A stretch of DNA of 64,000 bases from Candidatus Omnitrophota bacterium. GTDB taxonomy: Bacteria; Omnitrophota; Gorgyraeia; Duberdicusellales; 4484-171. The stretch spans positions 12,963 through 76,962 of the forward strand of contig JBAWWL010000010.1 of the NCBI GenBank assembly GCA_037146775.1, read 5' to 3'. Positions 52-63,061 of this stretch are shown here, piece after piece (position 1 is the stretch's first letter; each line of letters opens with the position of its first letter). The notes under the pieces are model-generated. The model saw only the letters and a program-made list of their open reading frames with translations, had not been told where the DNA came from and did no database searches. The translations under genes were made by a program, and so were the position numbers.

Positions 52-1683
52 TTATTTAAAAAAATAGAAAAACAATCCTATCATTCCGATCAAACACCAA
101 GCCAAATAAGTCGATAATATACCGTTATGCAAGTAACGTAAGAAAGTTATGAATAACGATGAAATCCTTTTCCCCATTTCGTAAATATCGAATATTTTCT
201 TTTCTGCCATGGCATATATAACTTTAAAAATACCGATTTCTTTAAAGGAGTTATAGAAATCATCCGCTTTTACTTCTTCGTCGGGATCCGATTCTTCTCC
301 CCCGACAAAAGAATTACTCACACTTATTTTTTTCTTTATTACTGCAGATATGATAAGGCCGAAAATAAAACCTAAAACAATCAAGATCGTGGTGAATGTA
401 AGTTGATATGAATATGTTCCAGATAATATCCCCACACTTTTAAAGATAAATTTTAGGATAGTTGCCTGAGCGAAGATGCCGAAAATTACGCACAGTAAAG
501 AAAGAATGATCGGCGCGAACAAAAGAAGCGGGCCAACTTCTTTTGTTTCTTTTTTAGAATTTCCTAAAAATACTCCTGAATTCAATTTTAAGAATGAGGC
601 AAGGGTTAACCCCGAACCTATCAAGGCCAGAACTAAGGAAATCGCAATGATGAATTTTAAATAAAAAGAGGCGGTTGAATTCATGAAGTTTATTAAACTT
701 TGATAGATCATCCATTTTGAGACAAAACCATTCAATGGCGGAATCCCGGAAATAGAAAAGGAAGCGATAAGGGTGGTGATAAAGGTAAGCGGCATATATT
801 TCGCTAAACCACCTAACTGCGACAAGTCGGTCGTGCCTGCTCTCTTTTCAATATTACCGACGCTAAGGAATAAACAAGATTTATATATTGCGTGATTAAC
901 CATATGAAATAAACCCGCAGCTAAGCCCAGGGGGGTGCCAGAGGCAATACCTAAAACCATATAACCCACCTGAGATACTGCGTGGTAGCCCAAAAGCTTT
1001 TTTATATTATGTTGGATAAGTGCCATCATTACTGCGCAGATTATGGTAAGGGAACCGGCAACAAGCAAAATAATCTTTGCAATATCATCCAAGATGAAAG
1101 CATCTTTAACCACTCTTACTAAAAGATAAATGCCTAACAGCTTATCCAATGATGCGGGCAAATAGGCCACTACTGGTATGCTGGCGTGTTCTGCTGCTTC
1201 GGGAACCCAGGTGTGGAAGGGCATGCATCCGGCTTTCGCAAAACAACCAATGACAATACATATAAATGCGAGCAGTGAAAGCCCGTCATTTATAATAAGA
1301 AGGTTGCCTTGTATGGAAGTATTGGTGGTTAAGTAAGTATAAAGCAAGAAACCGAAAAGTAAAAAACCGTCGCTTCCCCCTACGATGATAAAAGTTTTTT
1401 TTGCCACACTGGCGATTATTGAGTTTGATTCGGAATAAAGGTTTATAAGTTGGAAAAGGGCTAAACCCAGAAATCCCCAGAAAATTACTATAAGGATAAG
1501 ATTACTGGAAAAAGCTACCCCCAAAGATGAAAGTGCAGTCAGGAAAAACCAAATATAATATTGAATCTTTTTAGTTTTTATAAATCCTAAAGAGTAAATG
1601 AAAATAATAACGGTAAAAAATACTATAAGGATTCCTATCAGTTGCGAGAGCGGATCAAAAAATAAATTCTTTCTAAAGTCCAT
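52..1683 (-). CDS. [NiFe] hydrogenase group-4 membrane subunit, NuoL/MrpA antiporter-like (EchA/MbhH/HyfB-like)
   Basis: 543-aa polytopic membrane protein. Conserved WVPEAAEHASIP-type motif of the NuoL/M/N-HyfB family. Last gene of the hydrogenase operon and overlaps the large-subunit gene by 11 bp. Confidence 0.6.
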   Translation of the reverse strand: MDFRKNLFFDPLSQLIGILIVFFTVIIFIYSLGFIKTKKIQYYIWFFLTALSSLGVAFSSNLILIVIFWGFLGLALFQLINLYSESNSIIASVAKKTFIIVGGSDGFLLFGFLLYTYLTTNTSIQGNLLIINDGLSLLAFICIVIGCFAKAGCMPFHTWVPEAAEHASIPVVAYLPASLDKLLGIYLLVRVVKDAFILDDIAKIILLVAGSLTIICAVMMALIQHNIKKLLGYHAVSQVGYMVLGIASGTPLGLAAGLFHMVNHAIYKSCLFLSVGNIEKRAGTTDLSQLGGLAKYMPLTFITTLIASFSISGIPPLNGFVSKWMIYQSLINFMNSTASFYLKFIIAISLVLALIGSGLTLASFLKLNSGVFLGNSKKETKEVGPLLLFAPIILSLLCVIFGIFAQATILKFIFKSVGILSGTYSYQLTFTTILIVLGFIFGLIISAVIKKKISVSNSFVGGEESDPDEEVKADDFYNSFKEIGIFKVIYAMAEKKIFDIYEMGKRISSLFITFLRYLHNGILSTYLAWCLIGMIGLFFYFFK

Positions 1684-2857
1684 AATCTTTTTTTAAATTT
1701 TCTGTTTTTTGTATGGAAAGTTTTATTAAATCGTCACCGGTCAATATCTTTTCACCGGTTTTTAAGAAAACGGCGCTTCTTTCGGTGCAACAATAGCAAG
1801 GATCGACTGCCGCCAGAGTAATAGCAGCATCGGAAATAGTATAGCCGGGCACGGTTACGAGATTGCTCGCTACATTCACGAAGGAAGGCGCGCGTATTTT
1901 GTGCCTTATTGGCCGGTTGGTGCCATCGCTACGTATGTAGTGGATGCATTCACCGCGTGGTGCTTCCACTCTCCCTATCCCTTCTCCCGGAGGTATATCA
2001 CGCACTTCTGCCTCGATCGCTCCGTCAGGAATTTTGTCCAGACATTGTTCAATGAGCGAACAAGATTCAAACATTTCAAGAATACGCACTATAACTTTTG
2101 CGTATATATCTCCTTCGCGGCAGGTTATGACTGACCAGTGTAGTTTGTCGTAAAAAGCGTAAGGATCGTCTCTGCGCACATCTATATTGACGCCGGATGC
2201 CCGCGCGGTCGGGCCGACAACAGCTATGGATAACGCATCTTCCTTCTTTAATATCCCTACACCCTTAGTTCTGGTTTGGATAACCGGGTCATCCTCAATC
2301 GCCTTTTGGAATAATTGCAGGGTAGGATAGAGCTCTTTGATGGTTTTACGTAAAACTTGATAATCCTCTTTTTTCATGTCACGCCGGACCCCACCGATTT
2401 TCATCATCGCGTAATTTTGGCGGTTACCGGAAATTAATTCAAACATATCTAAGATCGGTTCCCGTGCTTTCCATGCCCACATCCAAATGGTGTTATAACC
2501 AATAAAATGCCCGGCAAGCCCGAGCCAAAGAAGATGTGAATGTAGGCGCTGTAATTCATCGATAATCATACGAATGTAATGAGCGCGTTCAGGTATGTCT
2601 ATTTTTAGAAGGTCCTCCACCGCCAAGCAATACGCAAAAGGATGGGAAGTTGAACAAATACCGCAGATACGTTCGACCAAGAACGTTATTTGGTCCCAGT
2701 GTTTCGCTTCCGCGAGCTTCTCTATTCCGCGATGGTTATAGCCGATATCTACTTCCAGGTCGACTACTCGTTCACCCTCGACGATGAGCTTAAAAAATTC
2801 CGGCTCTTCTTGCAGTGGATGATACGGGCCAATAGGAACAATTTTGCGTTTACTCAT
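1673..2857 (-). CDS. [NiFe] hydrogenase group-4 large subunit (EchE/MbhL-like, NuoD homologue)
   Basis: N-terminal RICGICSTSH and C-terminal DPCYCCTERS CxxC pairs, which are the Ni-Fe ligating motifs. 394 aa, the size of energy-converting hydrogenase large subunits. Confidence 0.8.
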   Translation of the reverse strand: MSKRKIVPIGPYHPLQEEPEFFKLIVEGERVVDLEVDIGYNHRGIEKLAEAKHWDQITFLVERICGICSTSHPFAYCLAVEDLLKIDIPERAHYIRMIIDELQRLHSHLLWLGLAGHFIGYNTIWMWAWKAREPILDMFELISGNRQNYAMMKIGGVRRDMKKEDYQVLRKTIKELYPTLQLFQKAIEDDPVIQTRTKGVGILKKEDALSIAVVGPTARASGVNIDVRRDDPYAFYDKLHWSVITCREGDIYAKVIVRILEMFESCSLIEQCLDKIPDGAIEAEVRDIPPGEGIGRVEAPRGECIHYIRSDGTNRPIRHKIRAPSFVNVASNLVTVPGYTISDAAITLAAVDPCYCCTERSAVFLKTGEKILTGDDLIKLSIQKTENLKKDYGL

Positions 2858-3281
2858 TGGTATAATCCTTTCGTAAGGGATAGCTGTCTTTGGGCCAATC
2901 GTTATCCAGTAATAAATGCGTTAAATTGGGGTGGCCGATAAAACGTACGCCCAACATTTCATTGATTTCCCGTTCTACCCAGTCGCTTGCTCTAAATAGT
3001 TTGGTTAATGAATCAATTTCAGGGTTATTTTTTTCTAGAAATACCCGGATGTTAAAAATTTCCCCGCTCTTGTCGCAGCTAAAATGATAAATCAGCTCAA
3101 AATTTTGTTCATTGTCTATGCCGGTTATGGTAGAAAGGCGCATGGATAGGTCAGAAAAGAAAAGTTTTGCCGTCTGTAAAAGATGTTTTTTATCAATAGT
3201 CAGGTAAATCCTTTTGGGGCTCTTTGTTTCCCACTCTTTTATGGTTTCCTTTAACGCATTTTTTACTTCATCTTTAATCAT
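2850..3281 (-). CDS. Hydrogenase NuoC-like (30 kDa) subunit (EchD/MbhK-like)
   Basis: 143 aa. Sits between the small- and large-subunit genes. NuoC-family-like sequence (…NLTHLLLDNDWP…). Confidence 0.55.
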   Translation of the reverse strand: MIKDEVKNALKETIKEWETKSPKRIYLTIDKKHLLQTAKLFFSDLSMRLSTITGIDNEQNFELIYHFSCDKSGEIFNIRVFLEKNNPEIDSLTKLFRASDWVEREINEMLGVRFIGHPNLTHLLLDNDWPKDSYPLRKDYTNE

Positions 3282-14267: not shown

Positions 14268-14581
14268 TTTTACCCCCTTCTTGGTGTGGCGTATTACATA
14301 ATTCGAAATAGTACGTATTTTACAGCGTAATAGCTTTTTTTCAATAATTTAGGTATAAGGTCATAAACAATAGCTCAATGTTTTTAAGGATAAATAGCAT
14401 AAAATATACGATCTTCTAATATTATCAATGGTTTTAGTTGTTTTTTGCAGAAAAATATGTTACTCTTAAATTGATGACAATCTGGTTTCTGATAAAGGTA
14501 AACCAAGGGTAACCTTGGGGCGCAAAGCTACCTATCCCGATATAACCGGGAAAGAGGGGTTACCAGAAAAACCATGTTTTT

Positions 14582-51623: not shown

Positions 51624-54023
51624 TCAATTGTCTTTCCACAATCCTTTATAGGTAAGGTATGCCTTTTTTAATGTACGTAAAAAAGGAGATTGTTTACCTT
51701 CGCCTTGGCCTACAACGCCAAGCCATTCTTCATGCATATAACCATCCAGAAAAGGCCCCGTAAAAAGGCCTTTGCGGTCATGATGCCATGGTTTATAGGA
51801 TTTCCACCACTCATCCGTCCATTCGAACACGAATCCGCCGATTGCATTTCCTGTGCCATATCCGCTTGAGTTGCAGGCAATATCCAGCCAGGCGTTGCGA
51901 TGGTATTCAGCCTGAAAAGATTCGGATTCTTCCATGGAATATCCTTGTGCATAAGAAGGTGCGCCATATTCGGTAATCATTGCGGCCCTACTCGATGTAT
52001 TTTTGACTTCATCCCAAAAATCAAAGAATCCGTATTTTCCTCGGTAACAGTTTGTTCCAAACACATCAATATCGGGACAGTTTTTAGCAAAAACATCCAG
52101 GAACAGCGCATCCCCTGACGCAATACCAACCGGCCGCTTAAGGGGGTCGAGTTGTTTTATTAACTTTGCTGCTTCGTTTGCGAATTTAAAAAAACTTTCC
52201 GGCTTTTTGTCGGCATTACACGCAACGCCGTACACATTCTCGTTTCCTAAAAGCCACATGATGATACCGGGTTCGTCCTTGAATTCGGTAACCATTTCCC
52301 GTACACTTGAGAGCATATTTTCTTGATGAGCAGGATCGTCGTAGTCAGTTCCCGGTTCCCATGGCGCTTTACTTCCGAGGGCGTATTTTCCCAAAAAATC
52401 GCCCAATACTGTATATATACCATATTTTTGGTACATTTGTCGAATAAGTTCTTTATTTATTTTAAATGGCTGGTGATATAGCCGTACGCAGTTAACTCCC
52501 ATATTTTTCATGAGATAAAAGTCACCGACTGTCTTTTCCCCTGCGTCTTGTATGCCGTTTGCGTTTTCGTCCACCCAGGTTTCGTAGGGAGCGTCGATGG
52601 TATTGTTATTGTTTACATCCTGGATACTCCAGTTTTGTTGAGTGCCTTTATCGGGAGATTCGCCAACACGGGTAGGGGCGTAAGTGACTCCTTTTATGAT
52701 AAATGGTTTTCCGTCAACCAGAAATTGCCAATCCCCGTTTTCGTAACGCACTATCTTTACTTTTTCTCCGCCTCTGGTTTCAACGATTTTACCCGGTTTC
52801 CGGTATTTTTCCTGCGCAGGGCATAGATTGGTCTTTAAGCATAACTTTTGCAGTATGTTTGCTTTAACTAATTTCCCCGGATTGACTATAAAAATATCGT
52901 TTCGTATGTCATTATCAAAGCCATTTATTACCTTTATCGAAGCGCCCTCCAACCTCAAGCCTAATTCCGGATTTTCCCGCAAGAGATGTTTGATCCGGTA
53001 CAGGCTTGCTTTGCCGATATACCAAGGCGTGTGCCAGTATGTCCATCCGTACGCAGTCGGAAAATGGACCAATACCGCATAGTAAGCTTTAATGGCTTGC
53101 TTTGTGAGTCCGCTGCGTTCCAGAATGTCGGCAATAAAAAATTGTTTTACCCCCCACGGTTCGGGGGCAATATTCCATTTATAAAATGCGGTCTTAAAAT
53201 CGCGACTATTTAAAATATTCCAGTGTTCGACAGTGCCTATTTCTTTTTTTATTTTAATGAATTCAGGGTCAAATTTAAGTGAGCTGGAATTTGGGTAAAT
53301 TCCTTCGCCTACGGCGTTCGATAAACCGATTTGGTCTTTAATTATGTACTGGTATTCTTTGGTCCCGGCACCTTTAAATTCGCCATACTTGGTATAATCA
53401 ACCGGAAAGATACCCGGGTCATATAGCTCAATAAGTATTGATTTTTCTAAAACGTTTGGTGCCTCAGTGTCGGTTCCTTTGATCTCGTCCAGGACTTTTT
53501 CTGCAGTCTCTTTTATGGACCAGAAAGTTCCGCGTGAAGGGTCGAATGCTTGCGCGTAGGGGTATTTTTTTGTCACTTCTTCAAGTATTTTTGCCGCCTC
53601 ATCAATTTTATTTTCGTCACGCAGGCTTTCGCCTTTGATAAAGTAACTTATCGCTACATCATCCATTATTTTGAAGGCGGTTTCCTCATTTTGAGGAGGG
53701 AATTTTTGGAGTGTTGCGGCAAGTTTATCGGCTTCGGCTGAGAACTTGAAAATGCATTCGTCGGTAACCTTATACACTTCTTCGTATTTCTTTTCTCCTT
53801 GCAGTGCCCATGCCTTTTTTACATATTCGGAAGAGTCTTCTTGTTGCGCAAAACAGACCAAAGACCAAAAACTAAAGATTAAAGACAAAAAACAGACAAC
53901 AGAAAAATCTGCCTTTTGGCCTCTGCCCTCTGACTTCTGACTTCTGCCTTCTGCCTTCTGTCCTCTGGCTTCTGTCTTCTGCCTTCTGTCCTCTGACCTC
54001 TGACCTCTGTCCTCTGTCTTCAT
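51624..54023 (-). CDS. Membrane-anchored clan GH-A glycoside hydrolase with N-terminal heptad-repeat (RGQKSEG)n extension
   Basis: The ATG overlaps the stop of the upstream permease (ATGA). N-terminus is MKTEDRGQRSEDRRQKTEARGQKAEGRSQKSEGRGQKAD, followed by a hydrophobic anchor FSVVCFLSLIFSFWSLVCFA. C-terminal domain has VNCVRLY, WLLGNENVY and ITEYG. Confidence 0.55.
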   Translation of the reverse strand: MKTEDRGQRSEDRRQKTEARGQKAEGRSQKSEGRGQKADFSVVCFLSLIFSFWSLVCFAQQEDSSEYVKKAWALQGEKKYEEVYKVTDECIFKFSAEADKLAATLQKFPPQNEETAFKIMDDVAISYFIKGESLRDENKIDEAAKILEEVTKKYPYAQAFDPSRGTFWSIKETAEKVLDEIKGTDTEAPNVLEKSILIELYDPGIFPVDYTKYGEFKGAGTKEYQYIIKDQIGLSNAVGEGIYPNSSSLKFDPEFIKIKKEIGTVEHWNILNSRDFKTAFYKWNIAPEPWGVKQFFIADILERSGLTKQAIKAYYAVLVHFPTAYGWTYWHTPWYIGKASLYRIKHLLRENPELGLRLEGASIKVINGFDNDIRNDIFIVNPGKLVKANILQKLCLKTNLCPAQEKYRKPGKIVETRGGEKVKIVRYENGDWQFLVDGKPFIIKGVTYAPTRVGESPDKGTQQNWSIQDVNNNNTIDAPYETWVDENANGIQDAGEKTVGDFYLMKNMGVNCVRLYHQPFKINKELIRQMYQKYGIYTVLGDFLGKYALGSKAPWEPGTDYDDPAHQENMLSSVREMVTEFKDEPGIIMWLLGNENVYGVACNADKKPESFFKFANEAAKLIKQLDPLKRPVGIASGDALFLDVFAKNCPDIDVFGTNCYRGKYGFFDFWDEVKNTSSRAAMITEYGAPSYAQGYSMEESESFQAEYHRNAWLDIACNSSGYGTGNAIGGFVFEWTDEWWKSYKPWHHDRKGLFTGPFLDGYMHEEWLGVVGQGEGKQSPFLRTLKKAYLTYKGLWKDN
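53908..54019. repeat. Degenerate heptanucleotide tandem array, about 16 units of TCTGNCT (second copy, inside CDS)
   Basis: tctgcct … tctgacc tctgacc tctgtcc tctgtct. Same unit and phase as the 5227..5359 array. Encodes the 7-aa repeats of the GH N-terminus. Confidence 0.85.
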
Positions 54024-58115: not shown

Positions 58116-60080
58116 TTACGTGCGGGCTTTGCCGTGCTTTTTGAATATCGCTTCTATTTCGTCGTAATCAAGCTCATCTTTTTCGATCAAACTAGCTGCC
58201 ATTTCGTCGACGATGTCCCAGTTTTTACGCAGAATTTCTTCGGTTTCGCGCATGCATTCTTGCAGGATCTCATTACCGTCTTTATCGAGTTGGTCATAGA
58301 AGTAGGGTAGTGCGCGGTTTTGGAAAAACGAGCCCTTGAAATCTCCGACATAACCGGATTTACCCATGCCTAAGCGCCAGGTCATCAAATAAGCCAATCG
58401 GGTTGCTTCTTCGAAATCAGAGCCTGTGCCGACAGACGTGACGCCGTATTTAATTTTTTCCGAGGCATAACCGGCCAGAAAACTTTTGATGTTGGCGAGC
58501 AAATGATTTTTGTCGCGAATAGTAATTTCTTCTTTTTCCGGGGTCCAGGTCACTCCTCCGGCTCCGCCGCGCGGGATAATGGTAACTTTGAATACATCCT
58601 GGAAGGGTACCGCGATATAGGTAACCACCGCATGACCGCTTTCGTGATAAGCGACTCGCTCTCTTTCTTGAGGGCTGTAGCGGCATTTGCGTTTTAATCC
58701 TAATTCGATACGTTCGCGTGCCTCATTAATTTCTTTCATAGTAACTAATTCTTTGTTGGCGCGCACGGCAATAAGCGCCGCTTCGCGTACCATATTAGAG
58801 ATTTCCGCAGGAGTGCTTTGTACGGCCAAACGTGCGAGTTTGTCAATTTTTACATTTTCTTTATCGTATTTTATTTTATTGAGATAGTACTGGAATATTG
58901 CTTCTCTTTCGTCTAGATTCGGCAGCGTTATAGAGATGTGCCTATCAAATCTTCCCGGCCTAAGCAATGCGGGGTCAAGGAAATCGGGATCCATATTGGT
59001 TGCACCAATGACGACAATATTGTATTCGGCGTCTTTGTCTTTCAAGCCGTCCATTTCAACCAAGAGTTGATTCAAAGTTTGATTATGTTCGCTTTGCCCG
59101 CCGCCGCCGGTTTCTGCTCTGCGTTTTGCGCCGACCGCATCAATTTCATCGATAAAAACGACACAACCGCCCTTTTCTTGGGCTGATTCTTTTGCTTCCA
59201 TGAAAAGTCGTCTGATTCTGCTGGCGCCGACACCGACATACATTTCCACAAATTCTGAACCAGCTCGCGCTAAAAACGGCACTCCGGCTTCATTTGCCAT
59301 GGCGGTTGCGAGATATGTTTTTCCACATCCGGGTGGCCCAAGCATCAGTAACCCGCGCAAAATCTTACCGCCTATTTTTTGTACCTGCGCCCGGTCTTTA
59401 ATCAGTTTAACGATTTCCATCCCTTCCTGCTTAACCTCTTCCATGCCCACCACGTCATCCCATCCGATAAGATGTGCGTCCTTATTTTTTTGTAACGAAG
59501 CTTCTCGTAGCTCTTCTATGGTAGGTCGGCGTACGCCTTCTTGAACGAATATCGCTTCTATCTCGGTATAGATAAGTTCGTTTTTTTGGATCAGCTTCTC
59601 GGCAAATATTTCAACCAGTTTCCAGTTTTGACGCAGGATGCTTTTTACTTCCAAGATAGTGCTTTCTATAATGTCTTGTGCGTCCTTATCTAGCTCTTCG
59701 CGTATCAGGTGAGAAATCCATCGACCTTCTTTATCCTCAAAATTTCCTATATAACCGGAATGTCCCATCCCCCAACGCCAGGTCATGTCGTGTGCCGCAC
59801 GCGTAGCACTTTCAAATTCCCGGTCAACATTATTAGAGGTGGTACCAAACTTAGTTTTCTCGGCGACAAAACCGGCGATATACACTTTGATTTCCGTAAG
59901 CAATAAAAATTTATCGCGAGAATAGGTTTTTTCTTTATCGGTTATCCAGGTAAGGCCAGTATTCGATTCTGGCGAGGTAAGAGTAGTTTTCGAAATATCT
60001 TTATTCGGCGCACATAGGTAAGTGATAACAATATGTCCGGATTCGTGATAGGCGGATCTCTGTTTTTCAAGCAAATTCAT
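58116..60080 (-). CDS. Atypical soluble FtsH-like AAA+ metalloprotease with duplicated M41 domains (M41-AAA-M41)
   Basis: No TM helix. First M41 domain: residues 10-180 with HESGH plus …SNNVDREFESAT. AAA+ domain: Walker A GPPGCGKT, Walker B VVFIDEID, pore loop MYVG, SRH ATN…RPGRFDR. Second M41 domain: HESGH plus …GSDFEEAT. 654 aa. Confidence 0.7.
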   Translation of the reverse strand: MNLLEKQRSAYHESGHIVITYLCAPNKDISKTTLTSPESNTGLTWITDKEKTYSRDKFLLLTEIKVYIAGFVAEKTKFGTTSNNVDREFESATRAAHDMTWRWGMGHSGYIGNFEDKEGRWISHLIREELDKDAQDIIESTILEVKSILRQNWKLVEIFAEKLIQKNELIYTEIEAIFVQEGVRRPTIEELREASLQKNKDAHLIGWDDVVGMEEVKQEGMEIVKLIKDRAQVQKIGGKILRGLLMLGPPGCGKTYLATAMANEAGVPFLARAGSEFVEMYVGVGASRIRRLFMEAKESAQEKGGCVVFIDEIDAVGAKRRAETGGGGQSEHNQTLNQLLVEMDGLKDKDAEYNIVVIGATNMDPDFLDPALLRPGRFDRHISITLPNLDEREAIFQYYLNKIKYDKENVKIDKLARLAVQSTPAEISNMVREAALIAVRANKELVTMKEINEARERIELGLKRKCRYSPQERERVAYHESGHAVVTYIAVPFQDVFKVTIIPRGGAGGVTWTPEKEEITIRDKNHLLANIKSFLAGYASEKIKYGVTSVGTGSDFEEATRLAYLMTWRLGMGKSGYVGDFKGSFFQNRALPYFYDQLDKDGNEILQECMRETEEILRKNWDIVDEMAASLIEKDELDYDEIEAIFKKHGKART

Positions 60081-60411
60081 AACCTACTCCTGATTTTTAG
60101 TAAAGTTATTGCTATAACAAACATAAATAATATAACATAACAACCACTAAAAACAATGAATTTTTTGTCAGAGCTTGTTTGGTTTTTATTCTGTTACTTA
60201 AACAACACGCTTTACCGGCCGATTTTTTCCAAAAAAATTAGTTATTTTAATCTTATTATAAAAAATACTGTTAACCGGAAAAATGCCTTTGTCTACTACC
60301 CCACAGGCCTTCGGTCTGGGGAGTTAAAATGTTTTATAAGTGCCTTATACTCATCGCGTTGAGTAATTAGTGAACTGCACCATTTGGTTCTCGGCATTTT
60401 TCCCGGTAGCC

Positions 60412-60432
60412 CAGCAGGCCGAAGGCCTGTTG
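60412..60432 (+). other. Hairpin cagcaggcc-GAA-ggcctgttg (9-bp stem, one G·U)
   Basis: Read directly from sequence. Intergenic between the divergent ftsH-like genes. Confidence 0.4.
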
Positions 60433-60449
60433 GATAACCTCGCTGTGAT

Positions 60450-60496
60450 CTGAATTTTACCTTTAAATATCAAAGAAATATAAGGGTAAAATTCAG
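60450..60496 (+). other. Perfect 12-bp inverted repeat ctgaattttacc / ggtaaaattcag with a 23-nt AT-rich loop
   Basis: Read directly from sequence. Confidence 0.45.
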
Positions 60497-60512
60497 CGGC
60501 GCCCCACAGGGC

Positions 60513-60543
60513 AAAAAAATGCATTTTCTAAATGCATTTTTTG
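60513..60543 (+). terminator. AT-rich terminator-like hairpin (A7-tgcattt-tct-aaatgca-T6), potentially bidirectional
   Basis: A-tract, then a 7-14-bp stem, then a T-tract. Low GC, so likely a weak terminator. Confidence 0.35.
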
Positions 60544-60556
60544 GGTTAATCTTATT

Positions 60557-60585
60557 TTGACAAAGCCTTAAAGATATGGTATCCT
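60557..60585 (+). promoter_or_regulatory. Candidate sigma70-type promoter for the ftsH-like gene (TTGACA - 17 bp - TATCCT)
   Basis: Consensus -35 hexamer at 60557-60562, a 17-bp spacer, and a -10-like TATCCT. AGGTG SD 7 nt before the ATG at 60601. Confidence 0.35.
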
Positions 60586-60600
60586 TTTGCAGGTGTTATT

Positions 60601-62274
60601 ATGAATACAAAATTAAAAATATTTTGGCGGTTATATTGGCTGCGTATTCTTGTCATTACTATTGTCACCATCCTCCTTATCTCCTTAATATTCGTTATCG
60701 TTGCCGGCATAAACTCCTACACTAAAATGGAATCCTTCTATAAAGAGCAGATGAAAGCTAGCATGGCAATGCAATTCTATTTATATGTGGTGGGCGGCTT
60801 AATTACCGCCGTTGTCTATGTTTATCTCTTTACTACGATGATGCATCGCGGAGGCGGAATGCGAGAATTTTCTAAAATACAGACAAAGTCGGTAAAAGGC
60901 GAAGAAATCGGGGTAAAGTGGAAAGACGTTATCGGAATGGAGGAAGTTAAACGAGAGGCCTGGGAAGCGGTAGAGCTAATAAAAGAGCGGGCACGCCTGC
61001 AAAGAATGGGCGGACAAATCATTCGCGGTGTTTTATTAGTTGGGCCTCCGGGTGTAGGAAAAACTTACCTGGCAAAAGCCATAGCTACAGAATGTAATCT
61101 GCCGTTTTTATCTGTTATCGGTAGCGAGCTTGAAGGTATTTTTGTAGGTTTAGGGGCAATGAAAATCCGCAAACTCTTTAAGGCTGCCCGTGAGCTTGCG
61201 GAGCTACAAGACGGATGTATAATCTTTATCGATGAAGTTGATTCGGTAGCTCGGCCGCGGCGAGCAGGCGTTGGGCTTGGCGGAGCAGAAAGTTATAATA
61301 TGGCAGTAAACCAACTGCTTGCGGAAATGGATGGTTTAAGGTCAAAAGAATATAACGTTGTAGTAATCGCTGCTACCAATGTCCCCGAAAACGAACTGGA
61401 GCCTGCGTTGATGCGCGCAGGAAGGTTTGATCGTAAAATATATATCGGTTTGCCGACCCTTGAGGACCGCGAAGCAATATTTAGATTTTATCTCAGTACG
61501 CTCCAGTACGATAGGCAAGGTATCAGATTTGACCATTTGGCGCGTCTAAGCGTAGGTAATACTCCCGCAGATATCGCGAATATTGTCCGTGAGGCATCTT
61601 TAATTGCGGTAAGAAACAGGCGCGAAATTATTACCATGAAAGAAATTGCCGACGCGCGCGAACGTATTACTTTGGGCCTGAAAAGAAAAATTAAATATAG
61701 CCCCCAAGAACGCGAGCGTGTATCCTATCATGAAGCCGGCCACGTGGTAGTAACATACATAGCCGTTCCTTTTAAGGATGTTTTTAAGGCAACCATTATA
61801 CCGCGCGGTTATTCCGGAGGGGTTACCTGGGTTCCGGAAAAAGAAGGAATTGAAATACAAGACAAAAACCACCTTTTAGGAAATATCAAAAGTGATCTGG
61901 GTGGTTATGTCGCCGAAAAAATTAAATACGGCATCACCTCCGTAGGTGTAGAGCAAGACTTTAAGAGCGCAACGGAAATTGCCTATAGAATGGTATGGAG
62001 CTTGGGCATGGGCAATACGGAATATATCGGTGATTTTCGCAGCCAGATATTTAAAGAAAGATACCCTCCAGGATTTTTTAGCGAGCTAGATAAAAACGCC
62101 AACGATATCTTAAAAGAATCAATGGTCGAAACTGAAGATATATTGCGAAAAAACTGGGTTATCGTTGAAGAAATCGCAAAGCAGCTTATTGAGAAAGACG
62201 AACTGAATTATGACGAAATCGATGAAATCTTTAAAGCTCATAATAAAGGGCCATCTCAAACACCTTCTGTTTAG
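60601..62274 (+). CDS. FtsH-like membrane AAA+ zinc metalloprotease (short periplasmic loop)
   Basis: Two N-terminal TM helices separated by only about 20 aa. Walker A GPPGVGKT, Walker B IIFIDEVD, pore loop IFVG, SRH. M41 domain with HEAGH plus …EQDFKSAT. 557 aa. Confidence 0.75.
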   Translation: MNTKLKIFWRLYWLRILVITIVTILLISLIFVIVAGINSYTKMESFYKEQMKASMAMQFYLYVVGGLITAVVYVYLFTTMMHRGGGMREFSKIQTKSVKGEEIGVKWKDVIGMEEVKREAWEAVELIKERARLQRMGGQIIRGVLLVGPPGVGKTYLAKAIATECNLPFLSVIGSELEGIFVGLGAMKIRKLFKAARELAELQDGCIIFIDEVDSVARPRRAGVGLGGAESYNMAVNQLLAEMDGLRSKEYNVVVIAATNVPENELEPALMRAGRFDRKIYIGLPTLEDREAIFRFYLSTLQYDRQGIRFDHLARLSVGNTPADIANIVREASLIAVRNRREIITMKEIADARERITLGLKRKIKYSPQERERVSYHEAGHVVVTYIAVPFKDVFKATIIPRGYSGGVTWVPEKEGIEIQDKNHLLGNIKSDLGGYVAEKIKYGITSVGVEQDFKSATEIAYRMVWSLGMGNTEYIGDFRSQIFKERYPPGFFSELDKNANDILKESMVETEDILRKNWVIVEEIAKQLIEKDELNYDEIDEIFKAHNKGPSQTPSV

Positions 62275-63061
62275 TTTACTTATTGCTTCACTCCTTTCCT
62301 GCGCCGCTGATACTCATACCACCTATTCGCGCAAAGACATCAAAACTATCATACTAAATCTTTGTAAAAACGAATTTAATATTGAGGTTAAGGTTTGGGA
62401 GTCCGGAGAGACTATATGGATTTATGCGCCGTTTGCCAACGTTCTTGATGAAAAACGGCAAATCAACAAAGATATCCAAGCCAATATCCGCAGAATATTT
62501 CTCTCCATTAGCCGTGTTATTTTGAGTATGGATAAAGCGCCGAAATTCTATGCGTTTGTATTTTCCGATACACAAGATATTGGTTTTGACGTGTACTATA
62601 TCGGTTTTGCCTACGATCTGGTTAAATTTGAACTTAACCATATTTCTTTAGGCCAAATGCAGGAGCGCCAGGCGGTATTGCAGTTATTAAACCCACAGGC
62701 GCTGGGAGATGTCGACGGAAACCATATTAATAAGTACGACATCAGCCTGGGAGAATTTGTTTCTTATCTTATCAAGCAAAACATTGAAAAAACTTTTTCT
62801 GCACCCGAGGTAAAAGATAATTTTAAAATTAACGAATTACAGACAAACTTTACAAATGGCAAACTCGAGATTACCTTTGATATTATGGTACAAAAATATC
62901 GCGAAGGGCTTGCATATCCTTTTGACGAAATTACCGCGATCACGAAAAGATTTTTGAAGATTTATGATTTCCCGGCCGACTTGACAGAAGTGGAAATTAA
63001 GGATAACTTCAATAAAAAAACCCGCTTTTATTCCAGAGAAGTCCTCAAAGAAGGAAAATAA
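62210..63061 (+). CDS. Hypothetical lipoprotein
   Basis: Signal peptide with LLSC lipobox. Overlaps the 3' end of the ftsH-like gene by 65 bp. 283 aa. Confidence 0.4.
   Translation: MTKSMKSLKLIIKGHLKHLLFSLLIASLLSCAADTHTTYSRKDIKTIILNLCKNEFNIEVKVWESGETIWIYAPFANVLDEKRQINKDIQANIRRIFLSISRVILSMDKAPKFYAFVFSDTQDIGFDVYYIGFAYDLVKFELNHISLGQMQERQAVLQLLNPQALGDVDGNHINKYDISLGEFVSYLIKQNIEKTFSAPEVKDNFKINELQTNFTNGKLEITFDIMVQKYREGLAYPFDEITAITKRFLKIYDFPADLTEVEIKDNFNKKTRFYSREVLKEGK

Follow-up and report, generated by a model that had tools for sequence, protein, structure and literature searches.

A soluble M41-AAA-M41 protein from Candidatus Omnitrophota as the probable second module of a two-module FtsH-like protease

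The universal membrane-bound AAA+ protease is FtsH, whose characterised members, to our knowledge, all follow the order membrane anchor, AAA module, M41 peptidase domain. FtsH M41 domains drive hexamerisation, and heterohexameric rings are well established in the family. In the mitochondrial m-AAA proteases (AFG3L2/SPG7 and Yta10/Yta12) and in the type A/type B FtsH proteins of cyanobacteria and chloroplasts, two paralogous AAA-M41 subunits are encoded per genome, but both partners are membrane-anchored, each has one M41 domain, and in no case does a protease domain precede the AAA module. Here we describe a different arrangement in a stretch of 64,000 nucleotides (hereafter the window) from a Candidatus Omnitrophota metagenome-assembled genome (MAG; contig JBAWWL010000010.1). 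One gene of the window, p1, encodes a soluble FtsH-like protein with an M41 domain on either side of its AAA+ module, and the adjacent gene, p2, encodes a membrane protein with the layout TM-AAA-M41 (TM, transmembrane). We propose, with a probability of roughly 0.6, that p1 is the soluble second module and p2 the first module of a two-module FtsH-like AAA+ metalloprotease, and that the N-terminal M41 domain of p1 serves chiefly for assembly or docking; as in the heterohexameric proteases, the two subunits would probably form one machine. So far, this two-module system has been found almost only in Omnitrophota MAGs. The features of p1 are as follows.

58116..60080, minus strand: open reading frame (ORF) of p1, a soluble FtsH-like protein of M41-AAA+-M41 layout, 654 amino acids, ATG start (NCBI MEI8350271.1, annotated as "AAA family ATPase")
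60087-60091, minus strand: Shine-Dalgarno-like AGGAG, 7-11 nt 5' of the p1 ATG, read from the sequence
59535..60080, minus strand: N-terminal Peptidase_M41 domain, residues 1-182 (PF01434 match, PDB matches, AlphaFold2 predicted local distance difference test (pLDDT) of ~80-93)
60033..60047, minus strand: HESGH, residues 12-16, first zinc motif (motif search)
59817..59819, minus strand: Glu88, in place of the Asp third zinc ligand (opposite that Asp in alignments with 2DHR and 7ZBH)
59466..59534, minus strand: linker, residues 183-205 (RPTIEEL…), with a low-confidence helix predicted at 188-201
58701..59465, minus strand: AAA+ module with lid, residues 206-460 (Pfam, motifs)
59316-59339, minus strand: Walker A GPPGCGKT, from residue 248 (motif search)
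58131..58682, minus strand: C-terminal Peptidase_M41 domain, residues 467-650 (Pfam, motifs)
58632-58646, minus strand: HESGH, residues 479-483 (motif search)
58416-58418, minus strand: Asp555, third zinc ligand of the C-terminal M41 domain (alignment; x71 spacing)

Pfam detects Peptidase_M41 in two stretches of p1, together with AAA at residues 244-385 (PF00004, 134.7 bits) and AAA_lid_3 at residues 409-452. Searched alone, the first 200 residues match PF01434 with 86.6 bits (E 2.5e-24; gathering cutoff 29.9 bits) and cover positions 7-191 of the 191 in the profile, and their matches among PDB sequences are FtsH-family protease domains only (7zbh at 1.8e-11, 2dhr, 2ce7, and YME1). The ATPase elements are canonical: the pore loop is EMYVGVG, Walker B is FIDEIDA, sensor-1 is GATNM, and the second region of homology (SRH) is LLRPGRFDR, with its Arg fingers. 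The highest mean hydropathy over 19 residues (Kyte-Doolittle scale) is only 1.5, compared with 3.37 in p2, so p1 has no TM helix. The AlphaFold2 model of the p1 monomer has a mean pLDDT of 84.9 and is confident for all three domains; the N-terminal domain lies mostly at 80-93, and the order of its secondary-structure elements matches that of the C-terminal M41 domain. In a fold search, the AAA-M41 part superposed on chains of FtsH, AFG3L2, and YME1 with a target template modelling score (TM-score) of ~0.8. An earlier, sequence-only reading of this DNA had proposed the M41-AAA-M41 architecture, with a full AAA+ module (Walker A and B, pore loop, SRH) and no hydrophobic membrane helix; all of this is borne out, including the alignment of the N-terminal region to M41 in a profile search.

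In its AAA+ module and C-terminal M41 domain, p1 is close to the FtsH proteins of E. coli, T. maritima, and T. thermophilus: it is 36-39% identical to the solved chains over ~450 columns, with a TM-score of ~0.8, and it shares their Walker, pore-loop, and SRH motifs and HExxH-x71-Asp (MEROPS M41, TIGR01241). On the one hand, p1 has a classic-clade AAA+ module, followed directly after the AAA lid by an M41 domain with HExxH and Asp, as expected of the FtsH family, and it may likewise form a hexameric ring and carry out ATP-dependent proteolysis. On the other hand, it has neither the N-terminal membrane anchor nor the periplasmic domain of bacterial FtsH, it carries a second M41 domain ahead of the AAA module, and it scores below the FtsH equivalog cutoffs (523.7 versus 600 for TIGR01241 and 349 versus 1008 for NF008004).

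The zinc site of E. coli FtsH is HExxHx74D (PMC11266112). All three M41 domains of the window, two in p1 and one in p2, have the spacing HExxH-x71-acidic residue. In the N-terminal M41 domain of p1, however, the third-ligand position is occupied by Glu88 (VDR-E-FESAT) and Asp is absent there, so this domain has the HESGH motif but departs from the Asp-zincin signature of HExxH plus an Asp third ligand. With HESGH and an acidic residue in place, metal binding is plausible. The earlier suggestion that both protease sites are complete thus holds for the two HExxH motifs, but not for the third ligand, and in some relatives of p1 the HExxH motif itself has been lost.

The place of p1 in a larger system emerges from its homologues, the best 120 of which were counted as clusters by architecture. 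Proteins with the same layout, M41-AAA-M41 with no TM helix, make up 22 clusters, with 54-74% identity over 99-100% of the length. A further ~61 clusters consist of fused proteins of ~1020 amino acids with the layout TM-AAA-M41-AAA-M41, which cover 99-100% of p1 at ~50% identity. In bootstrapped neighbour-joining trees of the AAA and M41 domains, the AAA module of the p1 class forms a clade with the second AAA module of the fused proteins (100% bootstrap), and the AAA module of p2-type partners forms a clade with the first AAA module of eight fused proteins resembling P0072 (also 100%). Because the AAA module of p1 is orthologous to the second one of the fused proteins, we regard p1 as one half of a split two-module system and not as the product of an anchor swap. 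The sequence-only reading had taken the N-terminal protease domain as a replacement for the membrane anchor; this view is not upheld, since p1 is co-linear with the distal M41-AAA-M41 portion of the fused proteins. The fused double proteins of Omnitrophota (e.g., P0072 and P0002, both uncharacterised entries) also occupy the same syntenic locus as p1. They differ from the window in holding within one chain the anchor and first AAA module that the window has in p2, and the split system carries one more M41 domain than the fused one, p2 having its own.

These homologues also bear on whether p1 is real. As the source is a MAG, M41 repeats could in principle mislead an assembler, and the sequence-only reading had itself raised the worry that p1 might be chimeric, with two genes, in this case FtsH genes, joined by misassembly or a frameshift; a decaying pseudogene was considered as well. 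We reject these explanations as extremely improbable. The p1 gene is one uninterrupted frame with a Shine-Dalgarno sequence, and an identical protein is present on two contigs (MEI8350271.1 of the Candidatus Omnitrophota MAG at NCBI, and a Logan assembly). The same M41-AAA-M41 boundaries are kept in ~20 homologous clusters from unrelated metagenomic samples. DNA identity among the three M41-coding segments of the window does not exceed 68-79%, which makes repeat-driven misassembly unlikely. The AlphaFold2 model, confident for three domains, speaks against an artefact too. A hidden upstream exon or pseudogene remnant was ruled out by a tblastn search of the 520-bp region upstream of p1 with the fused proteins, which found no FtsH remnant.

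The membrane partner lies next to p1 on the opposite strand.

60601..62274, plus strand: p2, membrane partner of 557 amino acids with two TM helices, a short loop, an AAA module, and an M41 domain with HEAGH and Asp (ORF, Pfam, hydropathy, motifs)

A TM-AAA-M41 partner adjoins the M41-AAA-M41 gene in all 11 distinct loci with visible flanks, 8 of them tandem and 3 divergent. The tandem pairs are separated by gaps of 11-25 bp or overlap. At three of the junctions (L090, L091, and L093) the arrangement is GGAGGAAG…ATGA, a 4-bp overlap with an internal Shine-Dalgarno sequence, which is the layout expected for translational coupling. Finally, in locus L096 (548-4201, plus strand) a single chain of 1217 amino acids has the layout TM-AAA-M41-M41-AAA-M41 and represents a whole natural fusion of the partner with the M41-AAA-M41 protein. 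Both middle M41 domains of this chain have YEAGH, and HEAGH is found in the last one only.

It could be argued that p1 nevertheless acts alone, as a cytosolic homo-hexamer with its AAA ring between two M41 rings that degrades soluble substrates without binding p2, and that gene adjacency reflects nothing but common descent and co-regulation. Indeed, p1 has all the catalytic elements of an autonomous FtsH-type protease, M41-driven hexamerisation is a property of FtsH, and in the lineage of the window the two genes are split onto opposite strands. We nevertheless consider an independent soluble protease quite improbable: adjacency holds in 11/11 loci across lineages that are only 54-56% identical, the ATGA overlaps with an internal Shine-Dalgarno sequence recur in three loci, natural fusions have arisen repeatedly, including the complete chain of L096, and none of the 11 loci with visible flanks has p1 alone. 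A working relationship between p1 and p2 is thus strongly backed by gene order and fusion. This much of the earlier suggestion that p1 forms mixed hexamers with its neighbour stands; the mixed ring itself is not favoured over stacked rings, as discussed below.

The related genes are found at one syntenic locus, which is bordered by purU and an ATP-binding cassette (ABC) transporter, or by enolase-divIC, at one end and by batD-purN-rnf at the opposite end. Its observed states are as follows.

Single gene, TM-AAA-M41: L009
Tandem pair, TM-AAA-M41 then M41-AAA-M41: L003, L005, L090, L091, L093, L170, L172, L173
Divergent pair, two genes on opposite strands: the window, L001, L171
Fused gene, TM-AAA-M41-AAA-M41: L007, L008

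Gene by gene, L007, which has a fused gene, corresponds to the 51.6-64 kb part of the window; the correspondence runs from the glycosidase and the ABC transporter through purU to batD and purN. Nearly all related loci carry Omnitrophota labels. Some (L011, L015, L017, and others) have an Omnitrophota-type gene set in records titled "uncultured Planctomycetia/Planctomycetales" or "Patescibacteria group"; these look like MAG taxonomy labels at odds with the gene content. A search of 185,579 species-representative genomes gave 249 relatives, and none of the best 80 was an M41-AAA-M41 locus, only single and fused forms being present; a scan of metagenomes added five further loci, and the split class collapses to one representative at 50% identity. 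Because it is unseen among the best species-representative matches and reduces to this single representative, the split M41-AAA-M41 form is a rare state of a common Omnitrophota system.

The zinc-site residues of the M41 domains are distributed as follows.

C-terminal M41, all three classes: HExxH in 114/114, third ligand Asp in 114/114
C-terminal M41, p1 class: HExxH in 21/21, Asp in 21/21
First M41 of fused proteins: HExxH in 23/61 (lost in 38/61, as YEAGH, YEAGR, and similar), Asp in 52/61
N-terminal M41, p1 class: HExxH in 17/21 (lost in 4/21, as YQAGH and YQSGR), Glu in 19/21

As 4/21 orthologues and 38/61 fused relatives lack HExxH, and as Glu stands at the Asp position, catalysis by the extra M41 domain appears to be dispensable in the family. 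Its mean within-class identity, on the other hand, is 0.59 and equals that of the C-terminal M41 domain (0.60), which indicates that the extra domain is under purifying selection. The extra M41 domain is invariant at M99, G104, M105, and G106, which directly follow the third-ligand helix; in AFG3L2, the region after this helix makes inter-subunit contacts of the protease ring (10.1101/551085). The simplest reading of these patterns is that selection keeps the fold and the assembly surface while catalysis is optional.

An M41 domain without zinc-binding residues also persists in an AAA+ assembly in chloroplasts, in the FtsHi proteins of the Ycf2-FtsHi import motor (PMC11266112). The degenerate motifs YEAGH, YQSGR, and similar in the extra M41 domain of p1 relatives parallel this case, and the structures 8xku and 8xqw were among the fold matches of p1. 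The HExxH loss that marks an FtsHi-type pseudo-protease is seen in the 4 orthologues and 38 fused first M41 domains counted above, but not in p1 itself, whose extra domain keeps HESGH and an acidic ligand. FtsHi proteins are furthermore plastid rather than bacterial and have one M41 domain, C-terminal to the AAA module.

In the trees of the M41 domains, the N-terminal M41 domains of the p1 class are monophyletic (100% bootstrap), but their grouping with the first M41 domains of the fused proteins has a bootstrap of only 14%, and a sister relationship to the first M41 domain of one fused subclade, seen in the plain neighbour-joining tree, was dropped for this reason. In the lineage of the window, the M41 domain of the partner forms a clade with the C-terminal M41 domain of the p1 class (100%), which suggests duplication or conversion among M41 copies.

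In the mechanism that we propose, p1 would assemble into a ring through its M41 domains and be held to p2. The N-terminal M41 domains would mainly form an assembly or docking ring, coupling p1 to p2 non-covalently as the peptide link does in the fused proteins, although they may still bind metal and cleave. The AAA ring of p1 would unfold substrates and feed them to the C-terminal M41 chamber, the presumed site of obligatory proteolysis; the ATPase motifs are intact in every module. As to geometry, we lean weakly towards coaxially stacked rings in the order membrane, AAA, M41, M41, AAA, M41 over a single mixed ring, because each architecture would then have six copies per tier, because the number of M41 domains between the two AAA modules varies from one (fused proteins) through two (L096 and split pairs) to three (with P0074, whose layout is M41-M41-AAA-M41), and because an unrelated lineage also carries the layout TM-AAA-M41-M41. 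A more specific version is a coaxial multi-tier AAA+ protease, in which one to three extra M41 rings, often catalytically dead, separate a membrane AAA-M41 unit from a second AAA-M41 unit below. We regard this version as possible but rather doubtful. If it is true, substrates pulled from the membrane would pass through the intermediate ring into a second unfoldase and on to the one chamber whose proteolysis is obligatory; the two machines of a split system would then be coupled non-covalently, by the N-terminal M41 ring of p1. Stacked rings would place two AAA rings in series on one axis, as in the type II AAA+ unfoldases ClpA, ClpB, and p97/Cdc48. Two AAA modules per chain are found in the fused relatives only, p1 having one, and, in contrast to type II unfoldases, a separate protease ring would come after each AAA module, and the two AAA modules would be one to three M41 units apart.

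The serious rival to stacking is a single mixed ring, with three copies each of p2 and p1 alternating around a shared AAA ring and a shared M41 ring. Each fused relative would accordingly assemble as a trimer in which every chain is a covalent dimer, and the N-terminal M41 domain, left outside the ring, would either bind substrates or adaptors as an accessory or be a remnant of the split. This arrangement has the heterohexameric precedents on its side, with AFG3L2 and FtsHi structures among the fold matches; a shared chamber would tolerate catalytic loss in one of two protease types (38/61); and the adjacency and fusion data fit it as well as they fit stacking. It leaves, however, three surplus M41 domains per ring for a split pair, six for L096, and nine when P0074 is involved, and these domains are as conserved as the catalytic C-terminal M41 domain and keep the ring-contact motif. 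Moreover, module 2 has no membrane anchor, unlike the partners in every known heterohexamer. The linkers can be read both ways. Between profile boundaries they measure 17-23 residues, shorter than the path of the 30 C-terminal residues of AFG3L2, which span from the protease base to the membrane-facing top of the ATPase (10.1101/551085); given that path, linkers of 17-27 residues might just reach the neighbour. Taken together, we judge the mixed ring unlikely.

Several points also weigh against our preferred reading of p1 as a docked second module. The p1-p2 complex, its stoichiometry, and its geometry are proposed from sequence and from a model of the p1 monomer. With its ~23-27 residues, the linker could equally extend to an adjacent place of one ring, and the AFG3L2 path means that linker length does not separate stacked from mixed rings. 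The frequent catalytic loss in the first M41 domain of the fused proteins fits the shared chamber of a mixed ring as well, and the invariant residues that we assign to a ring interface might be kept merely for folding. The genes of the window are divergent, and their co-expression is not enforced by an operon; the M41-AAA-M41 class is rare, with none among the best 80 species-representative relatives; and, as to the origin of the N-terminal M41 domain, its grouping with the fused first M41 domains has a bootstrap of only 14%.

The remaining elements of the p1/p2 locus are an intergenic region and a downstream gene.

60081..60600, no strand assigned: divergent p1/p2 intergenic region, 520 bp (tblastn: no FtsH remnants)
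62210..63061 (NCBI start 62222), plus strand: predicted lipoprotein gene, conserved, ~280 amino acids, overlapping the end of p2 (neighbourhood survey)

The window thus combines what characterises the two-module system: an adjacent TM-AAA-M41 gene, the orthology of both AAA modules, and the downstream lipoprotein gene. Of 173 FtsH-like loci, 149 have a member of the lipoprotein family directly 3' of the last FtsH-like gene, and the lipobox Cys of the family is invariant. The AlphaFold2 model of the lipoprotein (pLDDT 90) shows a four-repeat alpha-beta-beta fold, and a fold search with this model found no confident structural relative. Because the loop between the two TM helices of p2 has only ~22 residues, we speculate that the lipoprotein may be an extracytoplasmic component of the p1/p2 system. 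In the tandem locus L170, a protein of 705 amino acids with tetratricopeptide repeats (TPR) lies downstream in place of the usual lipoprotein, two Band_7 genes of HflK/HflC type (1001-2954, minus strand) are divergent from the TM-AAA-M41 / M41-AAA-M41 pair, and the N-terminal M41 motif is YQSGR.

In the intergenic region, the sole informative result of a promoter and terminator scan was a promoter-like site ahead of p2 (60557-60585, plus strand). Just upstream of it, at 60450-60496 and 60514-60542, are an inverted repeat with 22-nt arms and a perfect 13-nt palindrome (AAAAAATGCATTT / AAATGCATTTTTT); these may be an operator. There are also G+C-rich hairpins around 60290-60440, and Rfam at gathering thresholds detected no structured RNA in the region. 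Elsewhere in the window, Rfam identifies a c-di-GMP-I riboswitch aptamer at 14487-14567 on the plus strand (RF01051, 61.4 bits versus a gathering score of 35). The listed TPR/glycosidase-like ORF at 51624-54023 (minus strand) opens with low-complexity sequence (MKTEDRGQRSEDRRQKTEARGQKAEGRSQK…), followed by a hydrophobic, signal-like segment, and its true start is probably further downstream.

Other unusual FtsH-like layouts were seen among the relatives. A separate high-GC lineage (P0177, P0170, and P0180) has tandem protease domains at the C-terminus, TM-AAA-M41-M41, with YDEAGQ as the second M41 motif in P0177 and HEAGH in P0170 and P0180; we read it as an independent case of M41 duplication. 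P0281, with 1428 amino acids and a sequence that looks eukaryotic or algal, consists of two full FtsH units (anchor, AAA, M41) end to end; they may be genuinely fused or stem from a merged gene model. In P0087, P0088, P0090, and P0085, one of which is labelled Acidimicrobiales, two or three AAA modules precede a single M41 domain (TM-AAA-AAA-AAA-M41).

Database entries for the sequences of the two-module system are labelled "AAA family ATPase" or "cell division protease FtsH", and a full-text literature search, whose coverage excluded most subscription journals, yielded no account of a tandem-M41 or double FtsH. The sequence-only reading knew of no described FtsH with duplicated protease domains; this literature search turned up no paper on such a protein either, but such duplication is not confined to p1 and its class, as the TM-AAA-M41-M41 lineage and the FtsH-FtsH fusion have duplicated M41 domains as well. 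For a protease domain placed ahead of the ATPase in a soluble FtsH-type protein, we found no studied precedent. A whole lineage of Omnitrophota has doubled the FtsH unit; fused and split versions of the doubled form occur, and both halves as well as the fused proteins are available as sequences. This offers a test case for the docking of AAA+ protease rings onto one another, for an M41 ring that might serve as a structural coupling or gate instead of an enzyme, as a bacterial counterpart of the plastid FtsHi pseudo-proteases, and for the ways in which fusion, fission, and domain duplication reshape a molecular machine.

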